Below, piece after piece: positions 6,890 to 62,300 of a stretch of DNA of 64,000 nucleotides (the first letter of the stretch is position 1; every line of letters starts with the position of its first letter). The translations under genes and the position numbers were made by a program. This stretch comes from Clostridia bacterium (GTDB lineage Bacteria > Bacillota > Clostridia > Christensenellales > UBA1242). The notes beneath the pieces were generated by a model. It ran no database searches. It was given only the letters and a program-made list of their open reading frames with translations, and was not told the origin of the DNA. Location: contig JAEDFU010000006.1 in NCBI GenBank assembly GCA_016297915.1, forward strand, positions 3,618 to 67,617, written 5' to 3'.

Positions 6890-6900
6890 AGGAGAAAACA

Positions 6901-31167: not shown

Positions 31168-31794
31168 TTAGAACCTTCGAACAAGACCAATAACTTTGCC
31201 AAGTATTTGCACATCATTTACAATAATAGGGGAAAATGCGTCGTTTTCTGGTTGCAATCTATAATGTCCGTCTTCTTTGTAGAATCTCTTGATTGTAGCA
31301 CTGTCCTCAACCAAAGCTGCAACTATATCACCATTATTTGCGCTTGATTGTTGTCTCAAAACAATCTTATCTCCGTCATAGATACCAGCATTTATCATAC
31401 TATCGCCTTTGGCGGTTAGCATAAACAAATTATCGCCTTTAAATAGTGTTTGCGACACCATAAAGTACTCATCGGTTGTTTGAACAGCAAGTATAGGCTC
31501 ACCACATGTTACTGTGCCCAAAATAGGAATACGAGTAAGGGTTTCGTCGCCAGAGGGCTTGATTGTTGAGATTTGTGCAATATCGTTGTCAATAATCTCC
31601 AGAGCCCTATTTTTGTTGGGATTTTTCTTGATTTTGTTGCTATTTTCTAATTTATTTAAGTAATAAAATATTGTACTGGTTGAACTAACTTTTATGGCTT
31701 TGCACATTTCTCTCACTGTTGGAGGGTAGCCATTTTCGTTTTGATAGTTTTTTATATAATTAAATAATTGTTCTTCCTTAGAATATTTTGTCAT
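31168..31794 (-). CDS. lexA: LexA repressor
   Basis: GGAGG RBS. N-terminal wHTH (GYPPTVREMCKAI) and a C-terminal S24 peptidase with Ser (GDSMINAG) and Lys (TIKRFYKE). Confidence 0.93.
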   Translation of the reverse strand: MTKYSKEEQLFNYIKNYQNENGYPPTVREMCKAIKVSSTSTIFYYLNKLENSNKIKKNPNKNRALEIIDNDIAQISTIKPSGDETLTRIPILGTVTCGEPILAVQTTDEYFMVSQTLFKGDNLFMLTAKGDSMINAGIYDGDKIVLRQQSSANNGDIVAALVEDSATIKRFYKEDGHYRLQPENDAFSPIIVNDVQILGKVIGLVRRF

Positions 31795-31814
31795 ACTTCC
31801 TCCATATTTTTGAT

Positions 31815-31854
31815 ATCATAACATATTTTTGAAAGTATGTCAAACAAATGTTCT
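31815..31854 (-). promoter_or_regulatory. lexA promoter (TTGACA - 17 nt - TATGAT) with an overlapping LexA box
   Basis: On the minus strand: AGAACATTTGTTTGACA-17 nt-TATGAT. The box AGAACATTTGTTTG (31841-31854) overlaps the -35 (31838-31843). Confidence 0.7.
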
Positions 31855-31861
31855 AAGTTTT

Positions 31862-32902
31862 TTATCTAAATTTAACTTTTTGTGCAGCGTTACGGCGAAT
31901 ATCGTCCGAAATTGCGGCATAGTGTTTTCGGGTAGTGTTAACATCTTTGTGTCCCAAACAATCTGCTACAACATAGATATCGTTTGTTTCTCTATACAAA
32001 TTTGTACCAAATGTACTACGCAATTTATGTGGCGTTATTTTTTTGAGTGGATTTACTATTCGACTATACTTTTTTACAAGTTTTTCAACGGCTCTAACGG
32101 ATATTCTTTTGTTTTGCAAACTCAAGAATAGGGCGTTTTCACTGCCTGGTTCAGTTTTAATTTTTTTTCGCTCAAGAATGTAATTTTGAAGTGCATCAGA
32201 TACTTCCTCGTTAAAGTAAAGAATTACTCTATTTCCGCCTTTTCTAGTTACTTTAAAGGCATTTTGCTTAAAGTCGAAATCATCCAAGTTGAGTCCTACA
32301 CACTCGGAAATACGGATTCCTGTGCCCAAAAATAATGACAGCATTGCATAATCTCTTGCCTGAGTGTGTTTGTGAAAACCTTGTTGCATTTTGGTCATAT
32401 CTTGACCATTTTCGGCTAAATCTAGCACTTTTCCTACTTCGTCCATTTCTAGTCTAATGATTTGGTCTTCGTGAACCTTTGGAGTATCAATTTTGCTTGC
32501 TATGTTGCTTTTGACAACATCTTTTTTGTAAAAATACTTGAATAATGCTCGTATACTACTAAGCTTTCGGCATCTCGCTTTTTCGCCATTTTTGTAGGTT
32601 TTTCCATTAACTTTGTACAAAGATATGTATTCCAAGAACATTTCTACATGCGTAGAGGTTACTTTGTTTAAGTCCTCGGCGTCAAATTGAAGTATTGGTT
32701 TTTGATAAAATTCTTCTGTTTCATTGACCAAAAAATCAAAAAAAAGCTTGATATCTCGTGCATATCCGAGCCTTGTAAGAGGGGTTGTATACTGTTCTAT
32801 TCCTCTAAAGAATTCTCCACAAAATGCTGGTAAGCCTTTTCGAATTTCTCTTATTTTTAATATATTATCTTCGTCTCTTTTAGTAAAATAATTTTCTTCC
32901 AT
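31862..32902 (-). CDS. tyrosine site-specific recombinase (XerC/D-phage integrase family)
   Basis: GAGGT RBS before the ATG at 32902 (MEENYF). N-terminal SAM-like domain. Catalytic signature is present: R (GTGIRISE), HxxR (HKLRSTFGT), H (LGHKDVNTT) and Y (RKHY). Confidence 0.85.
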   Translation of the reverse strand: MEENYFTKRDEDNILKIREIRKGLPAFCGEFFRGIEQYTTPLTRLGYARDIKLFFDFLVNETEEFYQKPILQFDAEDLNKVTSTHVEMFLEYISLYKVNGKTYKNGEKARCRKLSSIRALFKYFYKKDVVKSNIASKIDTPKVHEDQIIRLEMDEVGKVLDLAENGQDMTKMQQGFHKHTQARDYAMLSLFLGTGIRISECVGLNLDDFDFKQNAFKVTRKGGNRVILYFNEEVSDALQNYILERKKIKTEPGSENALFLSLQNKRISVRAVEKLVKKYSRIVNPLKKITPHKLRSTFGTNLYRETNDIYVVADCLGHKDVNTTRKHYAAISDDIRRNAAQKVKFR

Positions 32903-33085
32903 ATTGACCTCAACTAACAAAATATTTTGCGAATACTTTTAGGTATTGTAGCAATAAAAAAAACTTATGTAAAGCAAATATGTGACAAATAAGCATCAAA
33001 ATAATTTATTTAGTTTCATATTTGCATTTTAATTAAATGACAAATAGTCAATAATGTGCTAAAATGTCTGAAATGGAGGGGTTTT

Positions 33086-35237: not shown

Positions 35238-37085
35238 ATGGCAAAAAAGAAAAGAAAAAAAATAGCCTCAAGAGGCTCTGTAAACGATATAATTTTGAAA
35301 ACTTTGGTCGGTGGCGATAAATACGGCTATGAGATTATCAAAGAAGTTGAGAATTATTCTGACGGCAAAATAATCTTAAAACAACCAAGTCTATATAGCA
35401 GTTTGACTCGCTTTGAAGAAAAAGGATATGTTAGTTCATATTGGGGAGATAGCGACATTGGTGGCAGGAGACATTATTATCATTTGACCGAAATGGGACA
35501 AAACTACTATGATAGCCAAATCAAGTCCAAAGAAGTAGACAAACTAAAGTCAACTACGAATGTTCCAGTATCTAACGCTATTTTGAAATCAAGCCCTTCT
35601 ACTTTGGAAGTAACTACAAATGAATCGAGTGATGTTTTGGAGTCTCCTACAAACACTACAGATACAATAGTTGAGGTTACTCAGACCACTCCTCCAGATC
35701 TTCCGAGCGAGCAAATTCTTGAAGAAGTTGATATCCCTGCTTTTGTGGATTTTGAACAGAAAGATGAAAACCCTCAAGAGATTGTGTTTGATCATAACTT
35801 TCATGCAAACACCCCTATTGAGCAAGAAATTGAGGAAAAAGAAAATAATAGCGACAACTCCACCTCTAATATTGCAGAAAGTGTAAATATCTTGGATACT
35901 CAAAGTCAAGAGAAACAAAATGGAGATGAGGTTTGGCAAAAACTATCTGACTTAACAAAGATTAACAATAAAAAATGTGCTAATTCTAGCAATAGACGAT
36001 TACATTATATTCGACCAAAAAAATCTCAAAAAGTAATCCTTGATGTTGACGGAATATACAAATTGCGTGATGCAGATTATGTTCCAAAAAAGTCTACAAG
36101 TAGCACAAAAATTATTGATAATGTGGGCAAGCGTATTGAAAACAAAAATATGGGATATGCTGAGTACACCAAGACCCAAACAAGACATCAAGAATTAACA
36201 GAAGAAGAAAGGCGTCTTAGAAACGAAAATTTTCTCGCCAAGTTTAACTCCCTAACTAAAACTAGACTAAAACCTGTTGAGCCACCAAAACCTGAACCAA
36301 AAGTCGAGCAGAAAGAAATCGACTATAGATCAAAACTTGATATATTCCAAAATTCTTTTGACGAACCCGAAGTAATTAGTACACCTGAACCACAACCTCA
36401 AAACAATTTGTTTAATTACATTGAGGACGATCAAGAACCTCAAGTGACTCCTACTGTGGCTCCTACTTTTGATAATTCGAATGTTATCGAAGATGAAGAT
36501 GACAAATTTATAGACTTTGATCCTGTAGATTTCGAAACAAAACCAGATGATAGTAAGTATGTCGAAGAGATTTCAAACTTTCAACCACGACAAGACAACC
36601 TAAAGATTAGCAAATACCAAAGCAGAACCGATGCAATTCTTACTGACAAAACTTATGTTTTGATAAACAAAGTAAAATGTTTGTTTGGATTTGTTCTAAT
36701 GCTTATGATGATTACAGAGGTTACAATTAGTCTATTTGTATTCAAAAAATACGATGTGATTGGTGCTAATGACAAGACACTTCTTATACTTGCTTATGTA
36801 ATTAGTGCTATAGTTTCGTTGTGTTTTATGTTACCGACAGTATTTAATCCAAATGAGCACAAAATCAATAATTTTAAACTGAAATATGCAATGATTTTTG
36901 GAATTTTGACATTCCTTGTATCAATCGTTTTGGTTTATTGTATTAATTCACTTGTTGGTTTTGAGCTAGATAACTTTAAGTACTTTGCTGTCAAAATGAT
37001 ACTTCCACTAGTTCTTACATTTAATTTTGTTATTGCCCCACCTATTTATGGAGCAATAATCAAATCCAAAAAATTCTACGATTAG
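35238..37085 (+). CDS. PadR-family winged-helix DNA-binding domain fused to a long disordered linker and a C-terminal 4-TM membrane anchor
   Basis: AGGGAG RBS. N-terminus ILKTLVGGDKYGYEIIKEV...SLYSSLTRFEEKGYVSSYW...RRHYYHLTEMG matches the PadR wHTH. About 380 aa of acidic/Pro/Thr/Asn-rich low complexity follows. Four hydrophobic helices occupy the last ~140 aa. Confidence 0.75.
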   Translation: MAKKKRKKIASRGSVNDIILKTLVGGDKYGYEIIKEVENYSDGKIILKQPSLYSSLTRFEEKGYVSSYWGDSDIGGRRHYYHLTEMGQNYYDSQIKSKEVDKLKSTTNVPVSNAILKSSPSTLEVTTNESSDVLESPTNTTDTIVEVTQTTPPDLPSEQILEEVDIPAFVDFEQKDENPQEIVFDHNFHANTPIEQEIEEKENNSDNSTSNIAESVNILDTQSQEKQNGDEVWQKLSDLTKINNKKCANSSNRRLHYIRPKKSQKVILDVDGIYKLRDADYVPKKSTSSTKIIDNVGKRIENKNMGYAEYTKTQTRHQELTEEERRLRNENFLAKFNSLTKTRLKPVEPPKPEPKVEQKEIDYRSKLDIFQNSFDEPEVISTPEPQPQNNLFNYIEDDQEPQVTPTVAPTFDNSNVIEDEDDKFIDFDPVDFETKPDDSKYVEEISNFQPRQDNLKISKYQSRTDAILTDKTYVLINKVKCLFGFVLMLMMITEVTISLFVFKKYDVIGANDKTLLILAYVISAIVSLCFMLPTVFNPNEHKINNFKLKYAMIFGILTFLVSIVLVYCINSLVGFELDNFKYFAVKMILPLVLTFNFVIAPPIYGAIIKSKKFYD

Positions 37086-41331: not shown

Positions 41332-44300
41332 TTACATATTTGTTGAACTATGATGTAAGTAATATTCGTAAGGTTTGTTGATAGTTACACTAAATTCAAC
41401 ATCTCTTGTAATTGTATCAAGTGTAAATGAGCCTAGACTATTTACATTGCAATTACTTGTATTTATTGTGCTAATAATATCATATTGAGTGTAATCTGCA
41501 AGTTTGTAATTATCGTTTAGCGTTGGATTATGTGAAACATTTTGGTTAAGTGTCACATAAGTGTTTTGAGTGTTATTTAGATAATACATTGGATAGAAGA
41601 TATATATCTCGTAAGTTCCATATGCGTCGATTGTTGTAGTAACGCCTGCAGTCTCACCAGCTACATCATAAAGTCCATTGTAAATATTCTCAAACTTAAA
41701 CGATTGATTGTTGTGCAAATTAACTGAATATGCATAATCAACAACACCTGAATTATCTTTGTGAACAAGAAGTATTGTCATATAATCGCTATCTTGAACG
41801 CCGTCTGTTCCTGCATCAGCAGTAAGAGTTGCATTGACGGTTACATTGAATACTCTTTCATTAAATGTAATTACAAGTCCATAATTTACGCTATCAATGT
41901 TTTGTGAGATTATAATATCTGCATTGTCATTTGTTGCATATTCGGTGTATCTAGTTTGATCCTCAGTAATTGTTACGCCATCAACTTCAGTACCGGCTTT
42001 GGTTAATTCGCCAAATAATGTAGAAGTAATAAGTCCAGTGCTTGTGTTGGAAACAATGAAATTACCAACCTCATTTGTTATTATCGAATAAGTAAACTTA
42101 AGTTCTGTAGTTGACTCAAAATCTTGAGAATCAACGATATCACCATATAATGATTCAACCTTACCGCTAGCATTTGTAAATAAGATATCATTGTTATCCA
42201 TATTCAAATTACCAAGCTGATTGGTGTCATCACCATACTTGTATGGATTGTATACTATTACATCAATGTCTGTTGTATCGCCACCATAGATTGATCTAAG
42301 TACTGGATAATCCCAGTTGATATGATTAATATAGATCCAAATATCATCAAAGTCCCAAGTACTTTCTTTCTTGAATTTATTTTGACTTCGTAAGTCACTA
42401 CTTGATATTTGAATAATGTTGTTTGTTACATCGCTTGATGCATTGCTTGTTGTATTTACAAGTCCTACGCCAATTTTTGGAGTACTTGTTGTATCTACAA
42501 GATAGTAGTTTTTGGTTACTGAATAATTTGTTGCATCAGAACTAATTGCATTAATAACTCTTGCATTTCCGTTTGTCAAATTAAATTCTGTCGCTACATA
42601 GTTATTAATTACTTGACCATTATTAGATAGCCTTAGAACCAATCCAGCAATACTTTCCAAAGCACCATTATAGCTATTTACTTGACCTTTGACATAGTTA
42701 TTAAGAACACTACCCTCAACAAATAGTGCATAAGCGCTATGTCCGTCACTATAATTGTAACTATTTATAATACCATTGAAATATGATTCTTGAAGTTTTG
42801 TGCCATTATTTACATTTGCAACCATACCGCTTGCATTTACATAACCATTTAGAGCCCAGATGCTTCCGCCTAAATCGCCACCAAACTCATAACTTTCGTG
42901 TAATCTATAAGTTCCGTCATCTTGCAAAGCATATCCAGTAACTGATGAACCAGTAACTATTGTGCTATCTGAAATCTCATGTGCAAGACCAGAAACTATA
43001 GTATTATTAGAATTATTGATATCAAAGTTATTGTATCCGTAGATATTACCACTTATGTAGTTACAATTAGCAATACTTGATGTTCCGCCAATTGTTCCTA
43101 CAATTGTAGCACCGCTAGTTAGCGTCAAGATATCTACATCTACAAAGTCAAGACCTCTAATTATAGAATTAGAAATTTGATTTACAAATGATGATTTGAT
43201 AGAAATCTCATCACTTCCGATTGCAATATTGACATTACTATCAATAGTCATTCCCTTGATAACTACATTGTCAACATCAGCATCTTCAAGAAGATCAGAT
43301 GCGACAATATTATTTGCATCCTTGCCAATACCAATAATATTAAATGAGTTACTATGTACACTATTGATTGGAGTGAAGTATCTTCCGCTCAAGTCAATTG
43401 GTGTGCTACTTGCAATTACAAATGTTTTGCCCTGTATACTTGAGTTATTATAAATTGATGCTCTAGATAGCCATGCAATATCATCTGCACTATCCAAGAT
43501 GTAATAATCATCTGTGCCAATAGTCATCTTGAGTGAGTCAAGAGTAATGCTCTCGATACCGGATTTTTCAATCCATAGACCATTGTCTACAAGAGGATTA
43601 GTACTTGAATAATCATTTACACCAAGAGTTGCAAAACCGCTTGTCTTTTCGAACTTAAACTCTGGATAGTCGGTCGAAGAGTAAGCATTAAGGATGTTTC
43701 CAATATCGTTACAAATAGCATTGGTTGTAGTTGTATTTTCAATTGTTCCTAGACTTACAACATTATATACAAGTACATCCTTGTTAGTTGTATCTATATT
43801 ATAAGAAATACCTTGAATTAACTTATCCTTGCCTGATACAAAGTTTAGACCGTTTTTGATATAGCTTAGGTTTCCTAAATTCTTGGAGTTAATAATTTGT
43901 CCATGATTTTCACCAGCAATTCCGCCAAAGGCAACAATTGATTGGTTATTTGAACAATTATCTAATGTGTAATTTAGAGTTGCGTTATTTTGAGCATTGC
44001 TAATAATACCATTATTGATACCAGCAATTCCGCCAAATACATAGGTGTATTTGTTTGCAGAAGCAATCAAATTATTATTGTTCTCAATCAAATACTTAGA
44101 TATGTTGTCGTCTGAATTGTTGACAACGATATTATTTAGTCTGCCATTGTTTTCGGCAACTAATGCCACAATAGATTTGTTAATTCCAGTTTGATTGCTT
44201 TCTGATGCTACAATATTTAGTCCATTAAATTTTAGTCCAGTGATTATCCCTTGGGTTTCAAGAGTATTAATCAAGCCAAACTTAGTAGTATTTGTAGTAG

Positions 44301-47300
44301 TATCAACATTTGACATACCATAAATATAATCTGCATTTGATACTTCATTTGCATGTCTACTTGTTATACCCAAAGACAAGTGAGAATCTAGTAGAACATT
44401 ATTAAATGCATATCCATTGCCGAATATAACTCCTGCAAATCTATCTAGACTTGGAGTAAATCTGCTCTCAAAGTCTATATCGTTTGTAACTACAAAGTAA
44501 GTTCCAGCAAAGTAATTATTACTACTGCTGTTATTTACTATATAGCCCCAATCGCTTGCTTTGGAAATTCTATATGGATTTGTCTTAGTTCCGCCACCTT
44601 GCAAAGTTGTGGACGAAGGCGCATCATTCCAGTAATGTCTTACAAAGTTTACATGAAGTTCGATATTACCAACTACATTGCCAATATCAATCTTATAACT
44701 ATAAGTCATATCCCCTGTTGGATTACCATTTGACAATACTTGTTCGTCAGTTCTTACATAATTTAGTGTTGTCGCATTATTAATTAGAACGCCACCAGAA
44801 TATTTTTGAACTACAGGCAAGTAATTAGTTGTAATCTCCGCCTTGTTACTTGTCCAACTATGTGTGGTTGGGTTGTAATATATTCTTGCAGTGTCAGTAT
44901 CTTTGTATACATAATACTTAACGCAACACTTATCTAGAATATACTTGGCTGTAGGAGTGATTGTTATAGTTATACTTCTTCCGTGTCTAACTTCGCTTGT
45001 AATATCTGTTCCTTGCAAAATATTAGTGCTAACAGTGCTAGATATGATATCCGGAGCAGATACTACACCATTTGTAGTGTTATACTCCAAATCTGCACCG
45101 CTATCAACTATAGTGTTGACATAGTGCTTGCTTGGAATATAATTAGCAACAATCATACTATCAGAGTAGTAAGCATGAGTAATAATCTCTCTATGGGTTA
45201 TAAGTTCCAAAGTCTCACTACCCACAATTATTTGATTGCTTACAATATCCTCGTTTTTAGTTTGATCATCAAATCCTGTAAATCCAGTGAATGTATATGT
45301 TTCTTTGGTGTAAGTGTTAAAGTTTACATATGCATTGTGGTCTACAAACATCTTAGTTGTAAATGTTGTTCCAATATAGTCAGTATTAGTAAGATTACTA
45401 CCGCTGTTGTATGCCAAATTTGTTCCAGCAAGTGAATATACACCTGCGTCGAGCTCAGCTAACTTCAAAGCGCCGTTTTCGTATACATAGTACTGGGTAT
45501 TATAACTTTGGGTAGATACAGTACCGTTATTATCTTTGTCTCCCAAATTGTTCTGATTAATCTGATATGCAGATTTGGTTTGAGTGTCACCAAGCTCTAA
45601 TACGGCTTTTTGAGTATCAGTAATCTGCTCATAACCATTTATATATGCGATTGGATAATCAGAACCAATGTCAGGGTTGACATTAAACTTAACTTGAACA
45701 AGCCATTGTTTGATAAGAGATACTACATACTCACCGCTTGTCTCAGCTGTTGCTACAAATTGAATGCTTAACTTACCGTCAGCAATTGTGTAAGCAAACT
45801 CATTTTGGACGCCAGTTTCACCAAACATAGTGTATTTAGCTTCGTTATACTTATTGTTAAGTGCAAACTTATTTGTGCTTGTCTCAACACTATTAACAAT
45901 TGTCTTGTTGTTGTCTAGATAATTTAGTCCATTGCCATCGTCCAAAGTCTTGTCTGCTTTGAGCATCCAATAGTCTACTCTAATATTAGCAAACTCTTGA
46001 GCAATAACAGCTGATGCTAGAGATAATTCAATATTAACTACACTTCCATGTGGAATATTTGTAAGTGTTGGATTTGTACTTGAAACTGTAGCATTATTAG
46101 TATTTTCGCTAATCTTAATAGCATCTACAAGTTCGTTTGAATCATTAGATGTATTTATAGTGCTAACAGAGATATCATATGTATCAATATCCTCTCTTAT
46201 CTCTATGTAATAATCAAATCTGTTGCGGTCATATATATTACTTACATTAGATGATGGATTAAGTTCCATTTGAACGCCAAGTTTCTTGCCACTGATGTCT
46301 TGAACATCGCTAATTCTTGTGTAAGTGTTGGTTACATTATCAATAGCGGATGACTTGTGACCAAGTGTTATTGAAGTTACATGTCTATAGATTATAGATG
46401 TAACTCTTAGATTGACTTGCGCGCCTCTATAAATGTATATAGTTCCATTTGAATTGATTACAACATTGGTTATTGTTACAAAGTTATTAGAAATAGTTGT
46501 TGCACCATTTTGTCTAATACTTGTTACGCTATTATCTATATCTACTACATAATTTGGAGATATAAGAACTAGTTTATCCTTGTTTTCATTTGACTCTTTA
46601 TCATAAGTAAAGTACCTATCTGTCAAGTCATTTGAATTTAGTAATGTATAGTCGTCACCGTATGGCAATCTTACGATATAATCGTTAAATTGCTTAAATA
46701 CAGGAAGTCCATTGTTTACATCAGAGTAAATACTCCATACATTTGTATAATCCCATGTGCTTGTTGGGAAGTTGGCTACCTTAACAATTTCGCTTGATGA
46801 TCTTGAAAGTACATCATTAAGAGTACTTGCGCCACCAGATACAACAACATCTGTTGTACTGTAGTTACTTAACCCCATGCTTTTTACACTAGATGATAGC
46901 CATACTGCGTGAGATAATTGTACTTCGCCACTAGAAACATTGTTTGCAAGATTGGCAACGCTAAATGATGCTGTATTTGTTACTTTGACAGAGATGGTCC
47001 CTGCATTGTAAATATTTGATATAGTAGTCTTAGTAGTGCTATTGATTCCTATAACACCAGCAATGCTTTGGTTGCCACTAGAGTCATCAGACATCATTAT
47101 ATTACCTACAAAGTACATATTTGCAAGAGTATTGGTTGTATCTGCACAAGCAATTACACCATATGCTCGCTTGTATCCCAAAATATCTGCAGAGCTACCA
47201 AGATTATTAGTATTGGCAGATGAATTTACTTTGGCTACAACAGCCGATACATAATCTGTACCAACAATGATGCCGTCAGATATAACTGTCTGTAATACTG

Positions 47301-50300
47301 CACTATTTGTACCTACTGCACCGGCAGTAAACTTGGATGTGGAAATAATATCTGCTACAACTGATACATTGCTTATAGTACCCAAATTGTTTGCAACTAG
47401 TGCAGATGTACTATAGTCGCTACTGTCTACTACCGATAGATTTGAATTAACGATATGGAAGTTATCTACAAACAAACTATCAATAGTGCCGTGGTTTTCA
47501 AGAATCAATGCCAAATCATAATAAGTTGTTCCACTTACTACAAATCCCATTGAAGCATATAGATATAGGTTGGAAATCTTGTAATTGTCTCCGTCCAAAT
47601 TTGCCTTAAACGATACAATTGGATTTAGATACAATCCTTTGAGATCAATATCTGCAGTTAACTTATAGTAAACAGTACTTTCGTTGTTTCTGTTGTTATT
47701 CATATTGTTCATAAACAATACAAAGTCGCTAGCACTAGATATCTTGTATGGGTCAAGTTTTGTTCCAGTTCCAGCAAGAGTGCTAGAACTTGTACTCATA
47801 TCAACTATTGCCGATACTTGTTTCAAATATCCCAATATACTCGTATTTGTCGAATTATTCTGCCAAATACGGGAATCAAGACCAAGCTCATCAACATTTA
47901 GTTGACTAACTGTCTTACTAGTTGCGTCATTTACGACTTTGGATGCAACTAAGAAATTAGTCTTGCCATACTTGCTAATGTCGCCAATATTAAACATCAT
48001 ATCACTATCTGCTACACCACTATTTACATGATGTACATTGCTCTTAAGAATTGCATCTTTGGCATTTGCAAATCTTAGAGTTGGATTAGAGATTGTGACA
48101 TTTGTATTTGTCTTATACTGACTTTGTCTATTTACAAAGGCATATGAATTATAGATTTCACCAAAGTAATCAGACAAGCCTATCATTGCACTCACACCAT
48201 TGTGATTTGCAACAAAGTTTACATTAATTACCTCAGTTTGATTAATTACAAACATATAATCTGCTACACCAATTACACCACCAAGAGCAACCTTGTCGCC
48301 CATATGTGTTGTTTTGATACTATAGAGAGTTGAGTTTGTAATATGTAGGTTGTCAATATAAATATTCTTTGCATTACCTACGACTGCACCAACTGCGTAA
48401 GCCAAGTCAGTTGAAATATCCATTGCGTCAAAGTTTAGTCCAATTAATCTTGCATTACTCGAGTTTGCAATAAATCCTACATAGTTACTAATAGAATTAG
48501 TTTGCTCGCTAAATGAACCAGTAAGATTTTTAGACATAAGCTCAATTGTAATTCCATTGATGCTACCAGTGTTTGTAACTTCGTTTCCGCTAAACATCAC
48601 ACCATCAAACTGACTAATTGGAAGCCAGAATTTGTGGGACATGTCTAAGTTATTTGAGATACGATAGTAAGCATCTTTGAAATAATGTGTAGCTGAACCC
48701 ACTTGATATGATGCATTAGTATCATTATTAAGTAAGTGAGCAAGCCAACCAAGTTTGTAAGGATTGTCTATTACAAATGCAGTATTTTTGGTTAAACCGT
48801 CAGTGCCAGATGTATTTTCAAACTGGAACATTGCCTTGATTGCATCCAAGGTTTGTCCGCTTGTAATAGTTGGAGTTGTATTATTAAACTTAGTCGAGTC
48901 GGTTGTGTTTCCACTAAGTTTACCACTGTAGTAATTAGGAATATTTGTATCAATACCTAATTGATCAAAGTAAGAATAGTAGTCTTTTTTGTACTCAATG
49001 TCAATTGAGACTTTTTCGTCAATAACTGTAATCTTACCATAATCATAAGTATAAGTTTTGGTCATACGATATGTAGTACTATTTAGGCTTAATTTGTATG
49101 ACAAATAGCCCTTTTCTCTCTCACCCAAACTTTCTGACTCAGTACTACTTTCGTCTAAGTATGAGGTGTATTTTGGACTAGGAATATCGTTTCCGTTAGA
49201 ATCCTTTTGGGTATCTTTGTTTGTCCTATTTGCGATAATACTATCATTTTCGTCGGTTAAACGATAATTTTCTTTGGTTGTAGAAACAATCTGAGCAGTA
49301 TGTCCGTCTGGCATTTGTGATGAGATAATTACATTGTCACCACTGAGCATGATAGAAACATTAAGTGCTCTACCCATAGCAATAACAGATTGTGTTACTG
49401 CATTAGCTGTGATTTCGCTATAAGTATTGCTTGTACCAAATGCGTACTTGAGTGTACCATTATCGTTTTTGATAGATATAATCTGACCAGAGATTGTATC
49501 TCTTCGGATAGACAAATGAGTCTCTTCCATGTTTTCGGCATTATGTATATTATATGTAAAGTCATATAGTTTGTCTATCATATAGAAGGCATACTCACCA
49601 ACTGTGCTAAGTGGATCACTTGGACTTGTTGAGTCATAGTTCAAATCAAATATAATGTTTGTGACATATGTATTGTTTTGAACAAACAAACTAGAGTTGT
49701 TTACACCAAATATACCTCTTGACAATTGAACTGTGTCATCGTTAAAGTAATGTTTTTGACCATTTTCAATATAGTAGATAGCACTTATTGCTTGATTCTC
49801 TATCTCGTAATAATATGTTTGGAGTGTGCCAGTTGCAGTATTGTAGAATCTTCGAGCAAATTTTCCGATAAGTGTACCGGATTTTTCGCCCTTAATCTCA
49901 ATTGTCATTTGCGAGCCAGCGCTAACAATATTACCAGGAGTTATATCATAAGTTCCATTATCATCAGTGTAAGTAAGTACAGCGTTATACTTAATTGGAT
50001 AAGTTGTACCATTGATTGTTACTGTTTTTGCAGTCAAGTTTGCAGGATAACTTGTATTGTTGTAAGTAACTGCTCCGTCTACTACTGGATATGTTGAAAT
50101 TCCAATTTCAATATATCCATATTCGCAAACATTTCCACCACTTACACATGTTGTACTGTCATAATCAAATGGATGATTTGTATCATAATTGCATATCAAG
50201 TTTCCGTTTGAATCATAACAACTGCTTATATGTTCGTGATAATGTAGCCCAGTAGCAACAGCCGAAGTATAGATGTATTCAACTACTGGATAGTAATAAC

Positions 50301-53300
50301 CCTCTATCGCTTTGTCAGATACAACTGTCAATGTTGCCTTGGTTATAAATGGAGTTGATATAATTCCATTATTCATTGTAATAGTTGATGTAGTAATTGA
50401 TGTTGACTCAATTAGTGAACTATTACTATTTAGAATATCACCTATCAAATCAATTCCTGAATTTGTACTATTGTACTTGATGTAAGAAGTAGATTTGAGC
50501 GACTCAAATGTAGATGATGTATCGCTATTTGGTCTAAATACCCAACCAAGTAACCTTGTAGCAACATAAGAATTTGCACTTCCAACATAAGGAGTTGCCT
50601 CAAATGTGAATGAAATCTTGCTATTTGGGGTAGAAGCGTTGGTATTTGTGTAGTAATATTCTTTGGTAGATTTAGTCAAGTACCAAGTATCTTGAGTATC
50701 ACTATTATTATTGTATCTTTGGGAGTTGCCAGACAAGATATTTGTCTTGTTTGTGCCATTTACATCAACAATTGTACCTGTTGCTGTAACTGTTCCCATA
50801 GCGTTGCTACGACCACTTTCTCCAGATACTCCGTTGATACCTGTTCCAAAGTAATTGAAGTTTTTGGACAAAATAACTCTTATTACATGTTCGTTTGTAC
50901 GAGCATATGTAATATCACTCTCAGCAAAACCATTAGTAGTCGAAATGTAAGACAACACATCAATATCCTTTGAAGTAGTTGCATTATCATTAGTTCGATA
51001 ATTGTATTGGTATCTTCTAGACTTGCCATCAACCGAAATTTCTACTATGTGGAAGTTAGTAAGAGGAGCTATGGTTATTTGATATTTGTTGGAAGTATTC
51101 GTCGTAAAGTCGTGCAATGTCTTGATGTAATAGTCCATGGAATTTGAAGTATGTTTACTTTCGTTTTTTGTTCCATAGATTATTTGGTCAAAGCCTTGAT
51201 TGTTTGTAAGAGTAAATGTATTTGCTACATCTTCGCTTGTAACAAAGTCAATACCCTCAACCACAATTTGAACCTTGACATTGTGTGAATTTTTGTTTCC
51301 AATTAACATTGGATATGGATAATCTGTATCCGCATTATTTATTGTTTGATAATACCAAACATTTTCAAAATCAAATCCGCTTGGCTTAGAACCAGTTTCT
51401 TTGAGATTGTCACTAGAAATAACTTCTGCATTGGCTAGAGGCAAATTACATGTGCCACTTAGCATATATGCATTAGTTTTTGTTACCGTTCCACTGCTTA
51501 GACCATTGGTCGAAGTAATTCGGAATGTCGCACTTGAGTAGAAGTTATTAACAGTAAGATTAGCACCACTGCCAGATAATGCATAAGCTTTGGACGATGA
51601 ACTTGTAGATTTTTCAAATTCATTGATACCAGCGCTATAATTGATTCCAGCATTGTTTCCACCAAAGTAAGCATCGTTTACAACTGTTGTTGTGTGCTTA
51701 CCAATAATTCCACCAAAGTATGAAGAATTATTGATGTAATTTGTATTGCCATAAGTATTGATTGTAGCCGATGAATGAACTTTGTTTAGACTTGTACCAT
51801 TTTGCAATCCAACTATACCACCAACGAATTTTGGTGATTGAGTATTTTTGCCAAATGCACCAACATTTATGTCGCCTACAAATTCAAGTTCGTATACATC
51901 CCTATTATTAGTACCAATCAATCCACCAACATAAACTTCATTCAAATCTGAGTCGTTGATGTTGATATCAATTGTTCCATTTACACTACAAGAATAAATG
52001 TCACCATTATTGATACTAGCAATAACGCCATAACTACTTGGTCTGTAAGTTGCAGTTGCACCTACTAACATATAAACATTTGCAAGATTTAAGTTTTTGA
52101 CAACCCCAGAATTTTCGCCAAACAATGAATTTGAGCGGTTTGCTCCAGAGCTATTAAAACTAGAATCATATTCGTGCAATGTGATATTAGAAATTGTATA
52201 ACCTGCACCATTGAATGTATATCCGCTTGGCAAGTTAACAGTCTTCCAAACATCACCACCAAAGTTGATATTAGATGTAAGTCTAAGTTCTACATACTGA
52301 TTGCTTGCATCAATTTTGTTTAGGCTTGCGACAAGCTCTTCCTTAGACGAAATTGCAACAATTACTGGAATTTCCTCAGTGCCACCAGTGTGGTCAGCAA
52401 CAGATACACTACCCGAGATATAAGGTGTAGTACTTGCAAGTCTTAGTGTTCTGTTGTTTGAATTTGGATTAACCCAACGATTTCCAAAACTGCTAATTCC
52501 TGCAGTGCTCTCCATAACTGAGCGGTTGTTAGAACTGCTAAAGAACTCATTTACATATACATTTTTGTAGATAAACTCGCCATTACCAATTTCGTTGCTA
52601 ATTGGATGACTATTTGAAGATGTGTTAGAGCCACTGATATACATGTAAATATCTTCGATATAAACACTAGCAGATGAATTTGAGCTTATCAATGCAGCAG
52701 AATAACCAGTCATTACAGAAGATAATCCGCCATCATCAAAATTAATATTGGATAGATATTGTGATGTTGCACTACCTGAACTTGTTACAATTGGTTTGCC
52801 TAAATCTGTACAATTGCTATGACCGATTAAGTACGAAGCATAGATGTTTGATGCACCATTTACATATATGTCTCCATTAATCAAAGCATTTTTGATAACA
52901 TTATATCCAGTTGTTTGACCAATTGCTCTAGCAAAGTAGTAGTTTACAGATCTTGATGTTGATGATTCAACATTATAAGAGATATACCCCAAATCAATAT
53001 CTAGCAAAGTAGTATTATTGGCAATACCAATTATTCCACCATGATATTGATTAGCCGAGTTGAAATAATTGTAATCTAATCCGTCGAATTTGACACCCTC
53101 AATTGTTGCACCATTACTTGTACCAATAAATGACATTGAAAGATCTCGATTGAAGTTGAAAGTCTCACCAGTTAGGTCTGATGCATAGGTATAAGGATCT
53201 TTTTCGCTTCCGTCAGTATAAATATTTTTAAACGAAGGAGTATTTGTGCTAGCTGTCAATGGAATACTGCTATTTAGCATAATATTCTTTTGACCAGCTG

Positions 53301-56300
53301 TTTTAATACCACTAATTGAGTATTTTTCGGAAATAATCTTGCCTTGGAAGTTATCAAATGGAATCCAAACATAAGAATTCAAATCAATATCAGAATCAAT
53401 ATAGATAACTGTATCAGCACTCTGAGCAATACTTGGAGTATTTGCAATATAAGCAAGTTGTTCTGCCTTGGTTACATGATATCCAGTCTTAGATACACCA
53501 TTGCGAGTAACTGTCGAAGGAGTAATTACCTCGGTATGTTGTCTCCAAGTCTCTGTTGTAAATACAAGAGTAATCTCTGTATTGTATTGCATGTAATTTA
53601 GATTTGTTTCTTCCCAGTTTTTGATTGAGAATACAAATATATTATCGTTATTTGAGGATTTAAAGTATAAATCATCTTCGGCAGATGCGGAGTTTACACC
53701 TTTTTTGGAGAAATACATCGAGTCTGCATTAGTGTACTTAGCACTAGCAGATGTAAATGTTGTATTATATCCACTGGTTGCCTTAATTACTATATAATTA
53801 GCAGATTGAGCAAGTAGTCCTGCTGTATCTCTTGTTATCTCGTTGGTGTCATTAGAATAAATTGTATCACCAAGAGTATAATTATTTGCCGCAGCTTCGG
53901 CAGTTTGTGCTTTGGAATATCCGATTTGGAAACTACCATTACCAAGAATTTTGACGATATCCTTGTTGGTTGTATTCAATTCGTAATCGGCAATAATCTC
54001 ATAAGTAGTGCCATTATGATCTGATGGAATAGTCATTGCGTATTCGAACAAACCATTTTGAGCTGTAAGACTTGTAGAGCCTGGCAAGTAGTCAGTAGCA
54101 CCTACTAACTTAAAGCCCTTGAACTGATAAGCACTCCTGCTTCGGATATCCTCAGCATGCAACTTAACTGTCTTGTAATCAGCACTTGTTGATTGAACTG
54201 TAGCAGTAATATTATTTGACTTAGTTGTTGCATTAGTTACATAGATTTTGTTACCTTGATAAGTTGTATTAACAACACCCTTGAAGTTATCTGATGTATT
54301 GACACCAACTGGGTCGATAGTGTCTTGCTCAATCTCAATGGTTGGTTGAGTAGACGCGTCCAAATAACCTGGACTAACTGTGAGCTTAACATTTCGTTTT
54401 TCCATGAAATATAGCGTCTCTCTCCAAAGATCTTTGGCTGTAGATATTGTTTTGGCAAAAGTTACTATATTACCCCCTGCAACTGTATAGTTATCTGGAT
54501 TGGTTGCACTACCATTGATGTATCCCAAAGAGTTAGAAGTTGCATCTACATTCAAATTTGTAAATGTTGTGATATTGTTGTATAGGTTGTCATATTGATC
54601 GTCATCCCAAGTAATCTTGATTGATGTGGTCTCACCAGCAAGTACATGGACATTGCGATAATAATAATCACCCTTAGCATCAATACTTGATGTATCTAGT
54701 GCATATTCGGTATCATCAACTACAAGTTTGATTGTTGCAGCATGGCCTGTACTAGCATTAGATAAGTAAGTACGGAATTCAATAGTATACTCTCTTACAA
54801 ACGAAGGAGTAATTGTTGCATCCTGGGTTACTGCAATCTTGGTTTGAAACTCTGTAGCGTTGCTAGTATCAGTAGAAACAAGTGTGTTGTTCTTATAATA
54901 AGATTCACGCGAATCTTTGTTGATTAACGAGCCATCGTAAACACCCTTAGAATAATTTTCGTAATTTACACCTTTTACAGTAAAGTGCGTTGTAACCAAT
55001 TCTGCTTTGCTTCCAGATGTGAATGTCACCTCGTGAGGAATATATCTCTCACTACTTTCTAGAGAATAATCTGGTGAATTAATAGAATAGATATATGGTG
55101 TAAGTGTAGTTGTAAACTTAAGACCAGTTGCACTATCAGTGCCATACACACCAAGAACATATGTTGGGCCTGTTGAATTATTATCTAACTCATAGGTGGC
55201 GGAAATATTTGATCCCCTGCCAATAGTATCTGTAGTTATGGATGTAAATGCATTGTATAGTCTAGAGAATTCAGTGTTGTTTACTGTTCCTGTAGAGGAA
55301 TTTACCCAACTGCTATAGCCAGCCTCATTGTAGTAAGGGATATTATTTGTATTTAGTTGATTGCTTGTAAATACAGTAGTAGCTGTTCCCTTGCCTGATG
55401 TTGGCTTGTTGAGAGTTATAAGCAAAATTGGATTGTATAGAAGTGTTACAGTTTCTGCAACTCTAATATTAGAAAATTCAAATGTAAGTACATCACCACT
55501 CTTGGATGTAGTGATTGGACTATTGCCACTCTTTCTTATTAGATTTTCGAATACATAGCCACGCTTGTAACTGTTTACATCATTTGCTGTATTAAATTTA
55601 GGTTCAATAACAGTATCAAATGTCTCAGAAACAGTTGTGCCATATCCAACAATCATTGTCTTACTATAAGTAAAACCACTTGAGTTCAAAGTATAACCTG
55701 CTTTGGTTGCAAATCTTGCTTGGAATGTCTCACCATTCAGCTCAAATGCTTGGTTATCGGCAGATTGAACATTGATAGTAATGGATATTGTATATGTAAA
55801 GTATGCAGATACCTTGATATCTTTGTTCTTTTGAACACCAACCGTCCCGTAATTACTATCAGTGTTAATTGCTGGATGCTCAATTGACTTGTTTGTAAGA
55901 GCGATGTTACCTGAGTTACATCCAGTTCCATTAGCAAGCTTATTTGCATCATAGCCATTATTCAATCCATTGTGGCTATAACCGTATATAGTATTGACAA
56001 TGTTTGTATTGCCAGCAAGTGGATAATAAGTGTTTTCGCCGTCTACTTTGTGAGTCTTGAACTTGTATGGACTGCTAACCTTGACAGATGTTACAAATGA
56101 AACAGAACCAAAGTAACCAATAAATCTGTCTGCGTCAGCAATTTCGGTGTAATTTTTGTTTGTATATTTGTTTGAACGATTATCTGTAGTAACAAGGGTC
56201 ATAAGGTCTTGTCCCTCAGTTAATCCAGTTAATGGGAATTCACTAGGAGTATACAATTCACCATTTTCTTTGCAGATACCATAGTAGAAACTATATGGTG

Positions 56301-59300
56301 TCTTTTTCTCAATAACTTTGGCTTGAATGCAATATGTCAAGTCAGTTGTATGATTTTCAAGGATGACAAACTTGTAATCAGCGTGCCAGTAAGTATTGCC
56401 AGATTCATCGGTAGTTTGATTGTAACCAAGTGACGAAACTGTTTCGTTAGCAGTAAATCCATTAAAGCACTCTGTACTAGTTATAGTTGAATATGGCTCA
56501 AAACCATTCTCAAGTCTTAGTTGCATCTTGACAGTATCATACATATCAACATAATTGCCAGTCAAGTCAGCCTGAGCTGTGCCAGAGTGATTTTGGCGTC
56601 CAGTAATGCCATTGTAAATTGACTTACTTGAGTCAGCATTGCTAAGAGTTAACCAGCCACCAGTATGACTTGCGTCATTATCATATCCAGCTTGAGATAT
56701 ATAGTTCTTTTCGGTAGCTTTGCTACTAAGCTTTAGCATTTGTACCAAATCAACATAGTATATTCCTGCTGTATCACTATTTACATTAAATGTATAAGTA
56801 ACATTTTGGAATGTATTGAGTGTAACGCCTGAAATAGTACTCTCGGTTTCATTCATCCAACGAGCCATTCGTACAATTCGGAATGGAGCGGATGCAATGG
56901 ATTGACTCTCACCATACTTAACCCCACCAAATGGCACATATGCATTGAGTGTGACTCTAGTGCCACTTACAAATTGAGTGGTATAGTACGAGTAAGAGAA
57001 TTTGCCGTTCTCGCTCTGCTTTGTCTTGTTTAGATGTACAAATGTTGGATTTGCCACATCTGCATTATACAAAGATAGGAAAACTTGAGAGTTGAAATCG
57101 TTGATACTTGTGTACAAGTTCTGAGCGGATGTACGAAGTCTATATACAATCTCTACAGCATATAGTTGATTTAATTTTATCTTAGCTGCAATATGATTTT
57201 GATTGTTAGAATCTAGATTTTGAGCAAAGTTATAATCAAATAATATGCCAGTAGTTGTAGTATAAACTTTGTTAGAAGCAGTTGTCACAAGTTTGTTACC
57301 AAATGTGCAAGTTCCTATATTATGTGTTTTGTGAGGATATATACCCTCTAGAGAGTATTCGGTTATAGTGCTTGCACTTCCATCGTACTTGAGATAAATT
57401 GTTGGGCTATCAATAAAGTTGGAGTTTTCTGCTGAACCACAACCAACATATAGATATCCATCAGTTCTAATTGGAATAACTTTGGTACATTCAGCATCAC
57501 TATACAAACTCACTTTGCCATAACAGCCGTTTGTACCTAGTGTAAATGTAACCTCACTAGTAGATTTTACTAGTCCTGATTGGTCAAGAGTAGATACAGT
57601 AAGTAGACTAGACTCTGTTCCGTCTAATTTGGCTAAGTTCAATACAACTGGTTTGGCTGTTGAGAAGAACGCAGTATAGTAAACATCATCATTGTTGCTA
57701 GAGGTTATTTTGGTTTCTATTTCAAAAACTGTTTCAGCTGTAGCATAATTCACCTGAGGAGTATCGTAATAAGCATTATCATAAGCAGCTTGAGGAGTAA
57801 AGAGTGAGTAATAAGTAGAATATTTGGACCTTAGATACCAATCACCATTAGTATTATAAGGCGAGTGTACTAGGCCATTTTCTGAATTGTAACTAGCGCT
57901 TGAATAACGATTATTGCCTTTAAGTTGTCCAAATGCATAGAATTTGTCCATACCATATGGTGCATTTGCATTAGCAGTTGCAGTTTGATCAAATGCAATA
58001 AGGTTAATTGTCCCACCCTCTTTGACAAAGATTGCCACAAAATTCAAATAGTTTTCGGAATCAGAAAATCCTGCAGAGGCTTGATTATTATTTCCTGAAG
58101 ATATATTGATGCTTCCTGCTGTTCGTCTGCCCTCTTGGTTGGAACCCGGACTTGTAATATTTACTCTATCCAAGTAAACCAAGTGATAATAATCAAAATT
58201 GACACTAAGGTTAAAGTTTGGACTTGTAGTAACATTGCTTAAGTCATTAGCAGAGATAACAAATTGAGCCTGAGAGCCAACATTTGGACGAACTTGGTTG
58301 TTATTTGTAGTAATCCATGGTGTTCCAGAAATCATACAGTTGTCATATGCTCCATTACTAAATGGTCCAACTGTTTCACTGCCAGAGCGTAAAGTGGCAC
58401 CAGCCATTCTAGCTTCGGATATGGCATAATATATGGAGTTTGTTTCAAATGTAATTGTATGTTCGTTGCCTGCAATGGCTTGGATTTCATATTCATATGT
58501 GCCATACGAATACTTGCCAGCAATATTTGCATAAATCTTTCCTACTAATGTAGAACCTTTTCTAATTTCATATGTCTCATATCCCTTTAGTTTGAGTGCC
58601 TCTAGGGTGATTCTTGAAATTGTAAGAGTTTCGGTACTAGCTGAGTAACCATCATGACGATTAACAAAACTTGATAGTGAAATTGTAAATAGTTTTGCGA
58701 ACCTATGTCTAAAGTTAACTGAATAATTGCTATCAATATAGCTTACATTTGCCTTGATATTAAACTCAACCCATTCGCTGTATGGTTTGTCAAAATTATC
58801 TGATCCGGTTGTAACTGCTCCGGTAGTAATATTTTGATAGCTAAACTGAGATATTGTAGATATTCCTGTAGAATTAGTCTCAGTTGCATTGAGTTTTTCG
58901 ACAATAATCCAGTTATTTGCAGATAATTCATCATAGTTATCTGTATCAGCCTTGATATATAGTTTAGTAAAGAATCCACAATCAAGTGTTGTATATGCTG
59001 TATCGTCTAATCCAGCAAACATAGATCCGCCATTGTAATCACTCGATGGAGTGTTAGTGGTAATCTTGGTTGCACTTTTGGTTGTACGATATCCAAGTGT
59101 TCCGTTAATGTATGATGCATAACTATTAGCATTACTTACACTTCGATAATTTAATGTAGCAGATTTTGCCCCAGTTGTACCTGATATAGATGTGGTTGAT
59201 GAATCATAAGCAAGTGTTGTGCTTAGGTTCAAAAGTCCAGTGTAGCAGTCTGTGCAAAGCGTATCACCACAACCATGACCAAATGTGTGAGTAAACACTT

Positions 59301-62300
59301 TTTCTTTGAGTGTAATTCTTATTGTAAATAGTTTGTTCTCATTAGCACCAGTCTTAATGAATTTATTATCTGTAAAATTGCTATCAGGAGAAGTGAAAAA
59401 CTGAGTATATTGAGTTGCAAGACTCTCTCCATCCAAAATCTCAAACTGAACAAACTGCCAACCGTATAGATTGTTGTCGGCATTCAATGCACCAGTTACA
59501 AACTTAAATCCAAATTTGTGTGCATTTTCTATTGCAGTTGTGGAGTTGCTTGTATTTGCTGATGAAAAGTATCTATACTTAGGATAAGTATTTTCGTCCG
59601 GAGTATTTATATTCGAAGATGAACGAGTTGTCTCTGTGATGTTAGAAACTACTCTTTGAACTTGGTCAGCTGTGAAATCTGCGTTATTGGATATAGCGTT
59701 GACAATTACTCTATAGGTATCTTCAAACGCATAATATTTTTGAGATGTAGCAGTTGCATCGCTAGAACTAGACGATATAATTGCACTAAGACTTGTGTAG
59801 TCACTAGAATTTAGCTTGGCTACATAACTGCCACTCTCGGTTACTAGTCTTACGCCTACACCATTATCGCTAAGGATTCCGGTGCCGGTGATAGCCGGAA
59901 GATTTGTTCCTTTGAGAATGTATGCGTCAGCTGTGCTGTTTAGAGTACTCGATGCACTTATTTGAATATGAATATTGTATTTAGCCTTGAAGTCACTTAG
60001 ATTTTCCACAACGCCAGAGCTAGCGGAACTTCTCTCAAAGAACAATCCCAAGTATTTGGCGGTGTCTGGGGTTGAAATCGTTTGAGACTTAGCATATGTA
60101 GTATTAGCGCCCGAAAGCACATTCATATTCTTGTCATAAGCCTTGACCAAAACTGAGTAATTGGTCATATTGCTTATAATTCTGTAAGTAAGTCCGCCCA
60201 CAATTGGTAGATAATCGTCCAAAGTAGGCGCAATTAGTTTTGTAGATGTAGCCTTGTATGTCAAGAACGAATTATTTGCAGTACTTATATAATTTAGATG
60301 ATAATCCGCAACAAATGTGTAAGTAACTGTGCTTTTGTCGATGTTTTCTACAAAATCATCAGTAATTGTATACCAAGTTGTGCCGTCTTGAGATACATAC
60401 AAGCCCTTGATATAAGCCGAACTTGTATTGTTTACAACAATCTTAACAATGTCCTTAAGCTCACCTAGGTCCACTGTTTTGCTATGTGTGCTTGTTCCAT
60501 TGCTTATAACTGCGCCGTCGGCTGTATAAACGCTAAATGCAGGAACAGTTGGAGCAACGACTCTAATATATCGAGCATTAAGAGTATTTGTAGCCCACTT
60601 AACAGGATTGTTTGTATTCGTCTTGACTACTGCTGTTTTGACAGTTTCGGTCATAATTGGTTCTATTTCCATATATGATGTAGAGCCAAAGAAATTGCTC
60701 TTGCCGTCTACTGCCTTGAAATTAAACTCAATAGTATTTTTGTCAGCACTAAGATTTGCTGTAAATATTTGCTCAAGAGCCTCCGCTGTAAATGTGTAAG
60801 CCTTAGGAACAACCCTAGTTGAAATTCCGTCGCTATAAATTTCGTATACAGTGTAGTTTGCCGAATCTTTTGTTATTGTATTAAAGTCCGAAGTCTTATA
60901 TACATACAACTTATAATACTTAACCTCGTATCCAGTAGCAGGACTAACTGTGCTAGTAATTTTGTCATATGCAGATGTTTTGTCTAGCGTATGACTGCTA
61001 AATCCATGGTTGCTAGGCAAAGCAAGTCCCCTAGATACAAGTTGAGCATTGGAAGATGCAGTTGCAAGTTTGACATAACTTACAAACTCACCCTCTATCA
61101 CAAACGAACTGCCTGTATAAGTTCCCTTGTAATTAATATTGCTTGCATTATAGAATGCTACATTACCAGCAACATATTCTGTATTGGATACCCCATTAAT
61201 CTTGGCAAGCTGTCTTACAAAGTTTGTATCTGGCGTGAATTGTGCCTCAAGGATTGAGTAGTAGTAAACTTTGAGAGCAGTACTAGTCGAAGTATAAACA
61301 GTATTGTTTGTACCCCTGGTATTGAGAGTAAGATTAGAACTGTTACTTGTATTTGAGCCGTATTTATCACCAATAGTAATCTGTCCTCTGCCTGTAATTT
61401 TGACAGATGAACTATTAGTAGAACCCGTTCCAAAAGTTTGGATTTCCTCAAATTGTGGTTCAATTTTAGACTGAACCTTGATGCTATTTGTATTCAAATA
61501 CTGAGCTTTGTTGAGGGTTACTTCAAATGTTATTGTATTTCCACTTATAGTTGGTTTTACTGGAGGAATAGTAGCAAGTGTTGTGCCACTATCTGTATAA
61601 GTTGTAGTACCAATCTTGACACCATTGTACTTGTAACCAGCACGCATAGTGATAGTTACTGTAACCACTAGGTTTTTGTTGGTATCAGTATCAGCCAAAT
61701 CATATGTCCAGGAATAACCAGAGTGATTTTGAGGAGCTTTGGTTGAAGTATCACCGTCAAGCAAGGCATTTATAGATATATTCTCAATTGGATTTAGTGT
61801 AGTTAATTTGAGAGCATTTGCTTGAGCAGAATATGCCGTAGTATTTCCCTCAAAATTAAGTGTGATGTATGGAGCATAAGTAAATTGCATTGTAGAAATT
61901 GCATTGCTTGACTTGTGTCCATATTTAGATAGAGGCTGAGCTGTGCCAATAACTGGTCTATTGTTGAATGTAATATCTTTGGCATCAAGTGATGTGTCGC
62001 CGGTTGCTTCAATGCTTATAAGGATATTATCATAAGCGGCGTCGTCTAGGTTATCACCTCTTGTAACTTCGATATAGTTGCCATATACGGTCTCTATAAT
62101 GTATGTAACTTTGTTTGCAGAGCCTGCATATCCCCCATCTGTGGTTTGGTCAGAACCTTTGAGAGTGATACTGGCTATTTTTATCGAACTACCCGATGGA
62201 TAGATCTTCTTGCCGACTAGTCCTGATGATTGACTTGAATATTGTTGAGCTAGTTTTATGTCAGTACCTGTATCGCCTTGCATTACAGTACCTGTATTGT

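Follow-up and report, generated by a model that had tools for sequence, protein, structure and literature searches.

Gut Firmicutes commonly encode giant, repeat-built surface proteins, most of which are uncharacterised. The protein considered here is encoded on a stretch of 64,000 nucleotides (nt) from a Clostridia bacterium (assembly GCA_016297915.1, contig JAEDFU010000006.1, positions 3,618 to 67,617 of the forward strand); this whole stretch is referred to as the window, and coordinates are those of the window. Its right-hand third is occupied by a single open reading frame (ORF) on the minus strand, which runs from 63975 down to 41332 (stop codon 41332–41334) and stays open up to the window end, i.e. 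41332–64000 in all. The ORF has at least 7,547 codons, the N-terminus of its product lying beyond the window, and residue n of the protein starts at nt 63975-3(n-1). These 7,547 amino acids (aa) are rich in N, S, T and Y and include 29 Cys. Neither HExxH nor LPxTG nor a transmembrane-like segment was found in the 7,547 aa within the window, the N-terminus being beyond it. The whole protein, run against Pfam as two halves, gave 0 hits at E<=0.01, and ten chunks of 755 aa run at E<=1 gave sub-threshold noise only. At the DNA level, the gene contains no meaningful direct repeats.

The C-terminal half of the protein carries six diverged modules, a to f, which account for about 2,200 of the more than 7,500 residues. 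They form three adjacent pairs (aa 3480–4230, 5054–5765 and 6455–7232, corresponding to nt 53538–51286, 48816–46681 and 44613–42280), the starts of which are 1,574 and 1,401 aa apart. The initial annotation of the window, made from its letters alone, had described six segments following the same pattern. They were assayed with a hidden Markov model (HMM) of the family built from outside the window: 144 complete modules, from N-terminal cap (N-cap) to C-terminal cap (C-cap), were cut from the 150 best proteins and reduced to 132, and this set is free of window sequence and of the close relatives of the window protein. The family HMM recognises exactly six positive domains in the giant protein, with E-values from 1e-11 to 6e-46, and every other stretch of the 7,547 aa scores below zero. 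The arrangement in pairs is also recovered, with two spacers of 823 and 689 aa and a tail of 315 aa that lie within about 10 aa of the figures first given, and the motifs quoted at that time are found at the quoted places.

All modules are on the minus strand. Module a, the first of pair 1 (52396–53538; aa 3480–3860), shows the strongest degeneration and the fastest evolution of the six; the family HMM matches it at aa 3437–3776 (30.6 bits, E 1e-11). Module b, the second of pair 1 (51286–52395; aa 3861–4230), is matched at aa 3815–4225 (81 bits, E 5e-27) and shows three clear GGxxG turns (VGGLIG at aa 4016, VGGIVG at 4051 and FGGIIG at 4087) as well as a canonical C-cap, WYYQ...DYPYPML. In pair 2 the first member, module c (47779–48816; aa 5054–5399; HMM match at aa 5014–5390, 50 bits, E 1e-17), has a turn LGGVIG at aa 5231 and a degenerate C-cap (RIWQNN...), and the second, module d (46681–47778; aa 5400–5765; HMM match at aa 5391–5768, 143.5 bits, E 6e-46), is the best preserved of the six. 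Pair 3 begins with module e (43561–44613; aa 6455–6805; HMM match at aa 6447–6770, 46.5 bits, E 2e-16), which has two FGGIAG turns (aa 6647 and 6683) and a C-terminal end truncated relative to its distant orthologues. It ends with module f (42280–43560; aa 6806–7232; HMM match at aa 6821–7229, 35 bits, E 5e-13), whose canonical C-cap reads IWIYINHINWDYPVL.

A canonical module is composed of an N-cap, a stack of GGxxG turns and a C-cap W...YPxL, a plan best kept in b, d and f. The canonical N-cap is G-x-G-T-x-x-x-P-Y-x-I followed by one helix, then (D/N)ID(L/F)...W-x-P-I...F-x-G-x-x-x-G-x-G-Y-x-I-S-N. In the window protein N-caps are found at aa 3529 (DIDLNSYVWIPF) and at aa 5109 (NLDMSHKFWLPI), and the motif G(N/A/D)(G/N)Y.IS/N at aa 3923, 5462 and 6519. 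The C-cap had been described as common to all six modules, which holds for half of them: W...YPxL is clear at aa 4207, 5741 and 7207, i.e. in b, d and f; in a and c a degenerate form of the W motif remains, and e has lost the W half.

Compared directly, the modules resemble each other little. BLASTP of 400-aa chunks against each other gave five weak module–module matches; the spacers did not match one another, and the N-terminal 3,400 aa gave nothing. With single-sequence hhalign, d–e is the sole significant link, and leave-one-out HMMs made from five modules are weak, a, b and f not being recovered. The profile–profile similarity implied by a shared pattern does appear when alignments of orthologues (described below) are used: these connect all six modules, with probabilities of 98% for d–e, 96% for b–d, 89% for a–e, 85% for c–e, 70% for d–f and 46% for b–f.

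Fold, family and putative function of the modules

An alignment of the six segments was used as a profile against 1.84 billion cluster representatives. It finds 2,563 of them at E<=1e-3 and 192 at E<=1e-10, many being very large proteins with multiple matching stretches, e.g. P0013 (7,824 aa, 18 stretches) and P0047 (7,338 aa, 16 stretches). Foreign relatives carry the Pfam GLUG motif (PF07581, gathering cut-off 20.5 bits) at 105 bits (P0011), 51 bits (P0021), 35 bits (P0028) and 32 bits (P0040), the last with additional weak matches to Peptidase_M26_N and Beta_helix. A profile combining module d, 26 foreign modules and the other five modules (A2) was compared with the PDB. It matches 3n6z_A end to end at E 1e-39 (profile positions 4–289 on chain residues 40–360) and the Gemella IgA1 protease 7uvl at E 8e-15.

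The A2 alignment was also used to model module d with AlphaFold2 (AF2). The model, obtained with a predicted local distance difference test score (pLDDT) of 79.6 and a predicted template modelling score (pTM) of 0.79, consists of an N-terminal helix (residues 16–28) and then about 30 short strands. Foldseek against the PDB places 3n6z first (E 9e-7, template modelling (TM) score 0.52–0.55), followed by the IgA1 proteases 7uvk, 6xja, 6xjb and 7uvl (probability 1.00, TM score 0.42–0.53) and, at lower ranks, by SRRP, PfbA, pectate lyases and other right-handed beta-helices. These matches to GLUG relatives and to 3n6z, together with the beta-helical model of d, support the predicted membership of the six modules in the family of GLUG-motif right-handed beta-helices, with 3n6z as its prototype, as the initial annotation had proposed. 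This is an already known and widespread type; the protein is a diverged member of a known family, and the giant is now anchored to a known fold.

We consider it likely that the window holds the C-terminal half of a giant, probably extracellular protein in which six GLUG-family right-handed beta-helices act as rigid binding or scaffolding surfaces. These helices would be the repeat-built surfaces of a cell-surface or secreted fibre, with a putative role in adhesion to host or dietary glycans or proteins. The six modules would have arisen by duplication or acquisition, too long ago for the order of their origin to be read.

Several results weigh against this reading. No signal peptide, anchor or secretion signal was seen, the N-terminus being beyond the window, and the C-terminus carries neither LPxTG nor a known wall-binding domain. 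On isolated modules the GLUG motif expected from the initial annotation reaches the Pfam cut-off in b only, and there exactly (20.5 bits); d (12.5 bits) and c (8.4 bits) are below it and a, e and f give no GLUG match at all, the GLUG motifs of the window being degenerate. Searched against the PDB, a profile made from the six modules alone misses 3n6z and has no relevant match; the link to 3n6z therefore runs through intermediate sequences, i.e. it is transitive. Finally, a confident structure model was obtained for module d only. For the pair a+b, modelled with natural tandem pairs as alignment (A4), the AF2 prediction is poor (pLDDT 53.6, pTM 0.43), and its junction lies below 50. In this model module a is moderately confident in its N-terminal half only, module b is confident in its N-terminal half as well, and residues ~390–590 of the pair model (blocks 391–560 at 70–87), within b, form a stack of short strands. 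The beta-helical structure first suggested for the modules is recovered in d.

To our knowledge, the beta-helix domain of IgA1 proteases is the only functionally studied member of the GLUG beta-helix family. In the S. pneumoniae enzyme, the N-terminal domain containing the beta-helix binds IgA1 Fab, and the beta-helix shifts by ~10 A, gating the active site (PMC7695701). Because this domain binds IgA1 Fab, a binding or scaffolding function is the most likely one for the modules of the window, by analogy within the fold family and in view of the composition of the protein.

An enzymatic function was considered as well, the beta-helices being in this case polysaccharide lyases, hydrolases or esterases of the pectate-lyase superfold and not binding or structural modules. 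The pectate lyases, pectin methylesterases, polygalacturonases and fucoidan lyase present among the lower Foldseek ranks would fit such a function, but they match at E>0.01 and TM scores of 0.2–0.3 only, the significant matches being non-catalytic GLUG helices. Moreover no Pfam match to any catalytic beta-helix family was obtained, and the loose alignment of the six modules has a single serine as its only invariant position. We regard enzymatic helices as very improbable, and retain binding or scaffolding surfaces as the preferred function.

The six modules can be compared with four known systems. The first is 3n6z itself (BACOVA_03286 of Bacteroides ovatus, a "putative immunoglobulin A1 protease"), a stand-alone GLUG beta-helix module with which the profile aligns end to end and which, among PDB structures, the model of module d resembles most, at ~16% sequence identity in the structural alignment. 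However, 3n6z is one module, a 363-residue chain from a member of the Bacteroidota, whereas the window protein has six far more degenerate copies in more than 7,500 aa. The M26 IgA1 metalloproteases (S. pneumoniae 6xja/6xjb, G. haemolysans 7uvk/7uvl) share the beta-helix fold and the family; they differ from the window protein by having one helix instead of six, and the window protein is without HExxH or an M26 catalytic domain.

The third comparison is with metagenomic GLUG giants (P0013, P0047, and P0011 with 7 near-identical modules), which are very large, have many copies that are often adjacent, and obey a common grammar of N-cap, GGxxG turn and C-cap. Disparities nevertheless appear: the modules of these giants are canonical, with strong Pfam GLUG matches, and often recently duplicated, while the copies in the window are 14–27% identical, mostly below the Pfam threshold, and interspersed with ~5,300 aa lacking a recognisable domain. 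Lastly, the binding regions of L. reuteri SRRP (5nxk/5ny0) and S. pneumoniae PfbA (4mr0/3zpp), beta-solenoid surface adhesins of Gram-positive bacteria, are right-handed beta-helices found by Foldseek at E 0.007–0.03; the match is weak (TM score 0.24–0.28), however, with no sequence relationship, and the family is different.

Some precise identities were tried and rejected: an IgA1 protease or M26 metalloendopeptidase (no HExxH in 7,547 aa and no Peptidase_M26 Pfam match), a sortase-anchored adhesin (no LPxTG) and a catalytic pectate-lyase-like enzyme (weak structural matches only).

Conservation and origin of the three pairs

Orthologues were searched with a seed made of an alignment of the region from module d to the tail and P0015. 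The search returned P0159 (4,232 aa) and P0160 (2,251 aa). P0159 is colinear with aa 3309–7547 at 57% identity, all six modules and both spacers being present. P0160 (47%) and P0015 (37.5%) span module d to the C-terminus, and P0014 (38%) runs from the end of spacer 2 through module e to the middle of f. Downstream of the P0159 gene the order is the same as in the window (ABC-2 permease, ABC ATPase, VTT, PadR-fusion, YgjP-like). The called start of P0159 is an artefact: on contig L085 (1–1617, ENA scaffold) the frame continues without a stop across a scaffold gap of 100 N up to the contig edge. Since the frame is open upstream to the contig edge, the orthologue must be much larger than the called product. 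Because the arrangement is colinear in relatives at 57%, 47% and 37.5% identity, the layout in three pairs is, as judged from these alignments, old and under selection, being kept position by position.

Searches outside these proteins returned little. Module d alone retrieved one homologue, a 231-aa fragment with 94% identity; the pair c+d found nothing in genome contigs, and the alignment from d to the tail found one 1.7-kb contig only in metagenome contigs. Logan sequencing runs with this locus do exist.

Conservation is uneven along the protein. Identity to P0159 is 46% for module a, 62% for b, 56% for c, 54% for d, 70% for e and 63% for f. Module a is the quickest to diverge (46% versus 54–73% elsewhere) and, of the six, scores lowest against the family profile, which may reflect either decay or adaptation. 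Module e shows a C-terminal deletion of ~95 aa at 43648–43674 of the window (aa ~6768–6776), by which the last helix turns, a linker and the W half of the cap are lost. P0159 shares this deletion, which is lineage-specific: in P0160, P0015 and P0014 module e has the full cap, F-x-G-F-D/N-F...W...Y/R-P-x-L/F.

On the strength of the regular alternation of spacers and pairs, the initial annotation had proposed that an ancestral super-module of ~1,500 aa, made of a spacer and a two-helix pair, was triplicated and then diverged, so that a, c and e would derive from the first helix and b, d and f from the second. The spacing of the pair starts is indeed regular, at 1,574 and 1,401 aa, but the spacers are mutually unrecognisable. 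Spacers 1 and 2, the 830 aa preceding module a (spacer 0) and the tail show no similarity with single-sequence hhalign (probability <=0.4%), and hhalign of orthologue alignments gives <=0.2% for the spacer pairs throughout; with the tail included, the probability stays at or below 0.6% for every pair by both routes. The profile of spacer 2 (three sequences) matches nothing else in the giant protein, and spacer 1 shows no similarity to the modules either.

The modules give the same answer as the spacers. In neighbour-joining (NJ) trees the bootstrap support of the positional orthologue groups is 99–100%; from the same alignments, it is 0–1% for a/c/e, 0–1% for b/d/f and 0% for all six together. 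The two clades expected from the duplication of a pair are thus not found. The best pairings in these trees are e+f (42% and 25%) and d+e (14–16%).

Other observations are less one-sided. With the orthologue profiles, a–e (89%), c–e (85%), b–d (96%) and d–f (70%) link modules of the same supposed class, and among the 10 possible 3|3 partitions the division a/c/e | b/d/f has the largest within-minus-between difference in hhalign probability, and the second largest in score. However, ten partitions allow a best p of 0.1, so this ranking is not significant, and the strongest internal link, d–e (98%), crosses the two classes. In the window protein the full W...YPxL cap is restricted to b, d and f, as expected if these were the second helices; but because e has the full cap in P0160, P0015 and P0014, a C-cap limited to second members, i.e. 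a capless first member, is not ancestral. A triplication of spacer plus pair is not supported by these comparisons, and we judge it an unlikely history. A tidy periodic layout does not by itself indicate duplication of a super-module.

The divergence between the modules is large. In the family-profile alignment the six share 14–27% identity with each other and on average 20–25% with foreign modules; by this measure, modules of unrelated proteins are no more distant from them than they are from one another. The orthologue profile of each module scores foreign canonical modules far above its siblings. Pairs of modules are not unusual in this family: because 33 adjacent pairs occur among the 144 extracted modules, direct tandem adjacency is the usual and commonest arrangement.

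These results bear on a second origin, in which the helix pair alone was duplicated, or modules were added singly, either through local tandem duplications or through recombination with other genes carrying GLUG modules, unrelated spacers being inserted. The frequency of tandem adjacency in the family argues for it, as does the fact that for each module the nearest neighbours by profile score are foreign ones; the best-supported pairing in the trees, e+f, agrees with it weakly. On the other hand no grouping has real support, no repeats are seen at the DNA level, and long-branch effects among degenerate modules would give the same picture under any history. We find the arguments for and against this origin about evenly balanced.

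It is also conceivable that the three pairs are positional homologues and that a two-helix unit was duplicated very long ago. Its first and second members would have become specialised for different roles, e.g. to build a heterotypic binding cleft between two helices, and would have been maintained across a family of giant proteins that lack other recognisable domains and are found only in uncultured gut Clostridia. We hold this more elaborate scenario to be doubtful.

Spacers, tail and genomic setting

Spacer 1 (48817–51285, minus strand; aa 4231–5053, 823 aa) has no Pfam match and is 54% identical to P0159. Spacer 2 (44614–46680, minus strand; aa 5766–6454, 689 aa) is 62%, 51% and 35% identical to P0159, P0160 and P0015, respectively. 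The C-terminal tail (41335–42279, minus strand; aa 7233–7547, 315 aa) is the most conserved part of the protein, with 73%, 63% and 48% identity to the same three proteins, and a conserved motif, ...NKPYEYWLH..., stands at its end. Searches with the tail gave neither a Pfam match nor a PDB sequence match, and it contains no LPxTG and no transmembrane segment. The tail could be an anchoring or secretion determinant.

Beyond the modules, ~5,300 aa (53539–64000, i.e. aa 1–3479, plus both spacers) contain no recognisable domain: no Pfam domain, no internal repeat by BLASTP and no match to the module profile was found there. The beta-helix modules being ordinary, these domain-less residues and the conserved 315-aa tail are the parts of greater interest. 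In the N-terminal part, a sub-threshold match to F5_F8_type_C_2 (NedA-like galactose-binding; 18.9 bits for a cut-off of 27.8, E 0.002) lies at 60298–60504 (aa ~1158–1226), and is the sole hint of a carbohydrate-binding domain in this part.

The window has a G+C content of ~33%. The genes flanking the giant ORF are chromosomal, with housekeeping and transport functions: MutS/MutL, MiaA, a LexA-like repressor, an integrase, a PadR-fusion protein, a VTT-domain protein and an ABC-2 transporter. MutS is 70–73% identical to that of two metagenome-assembled Clostridia/Clostridiales genomes from animal guts (one from a roe deer cecum) and ~50% identical to that of many other gut Clostridia. On the basis of these MutS identities, the host is an uncultured gut Clostridia bacterium.

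Two of the neighbouring loci deserve mention. The gene at 35238–37085 (plus strand) encodes a 615-aa protein in which a PadR DNA-binding domain at the N-terminus (residues 19–91) is the sole domain recognised, the remaining ~520 aa being unannotated; this fusion is also kept in the related contig L085 (628 aa). At 31168–32920 (minus strand), just downstream of mutS-mutL-miaA, a LexA-like repressor (LexA_DNA_bind and Peptidase_S24) adjoins a recombinase of the phage-integrase family, and the same repressor–recombinase couple recurs on other metagenome contigs with the same miaA.

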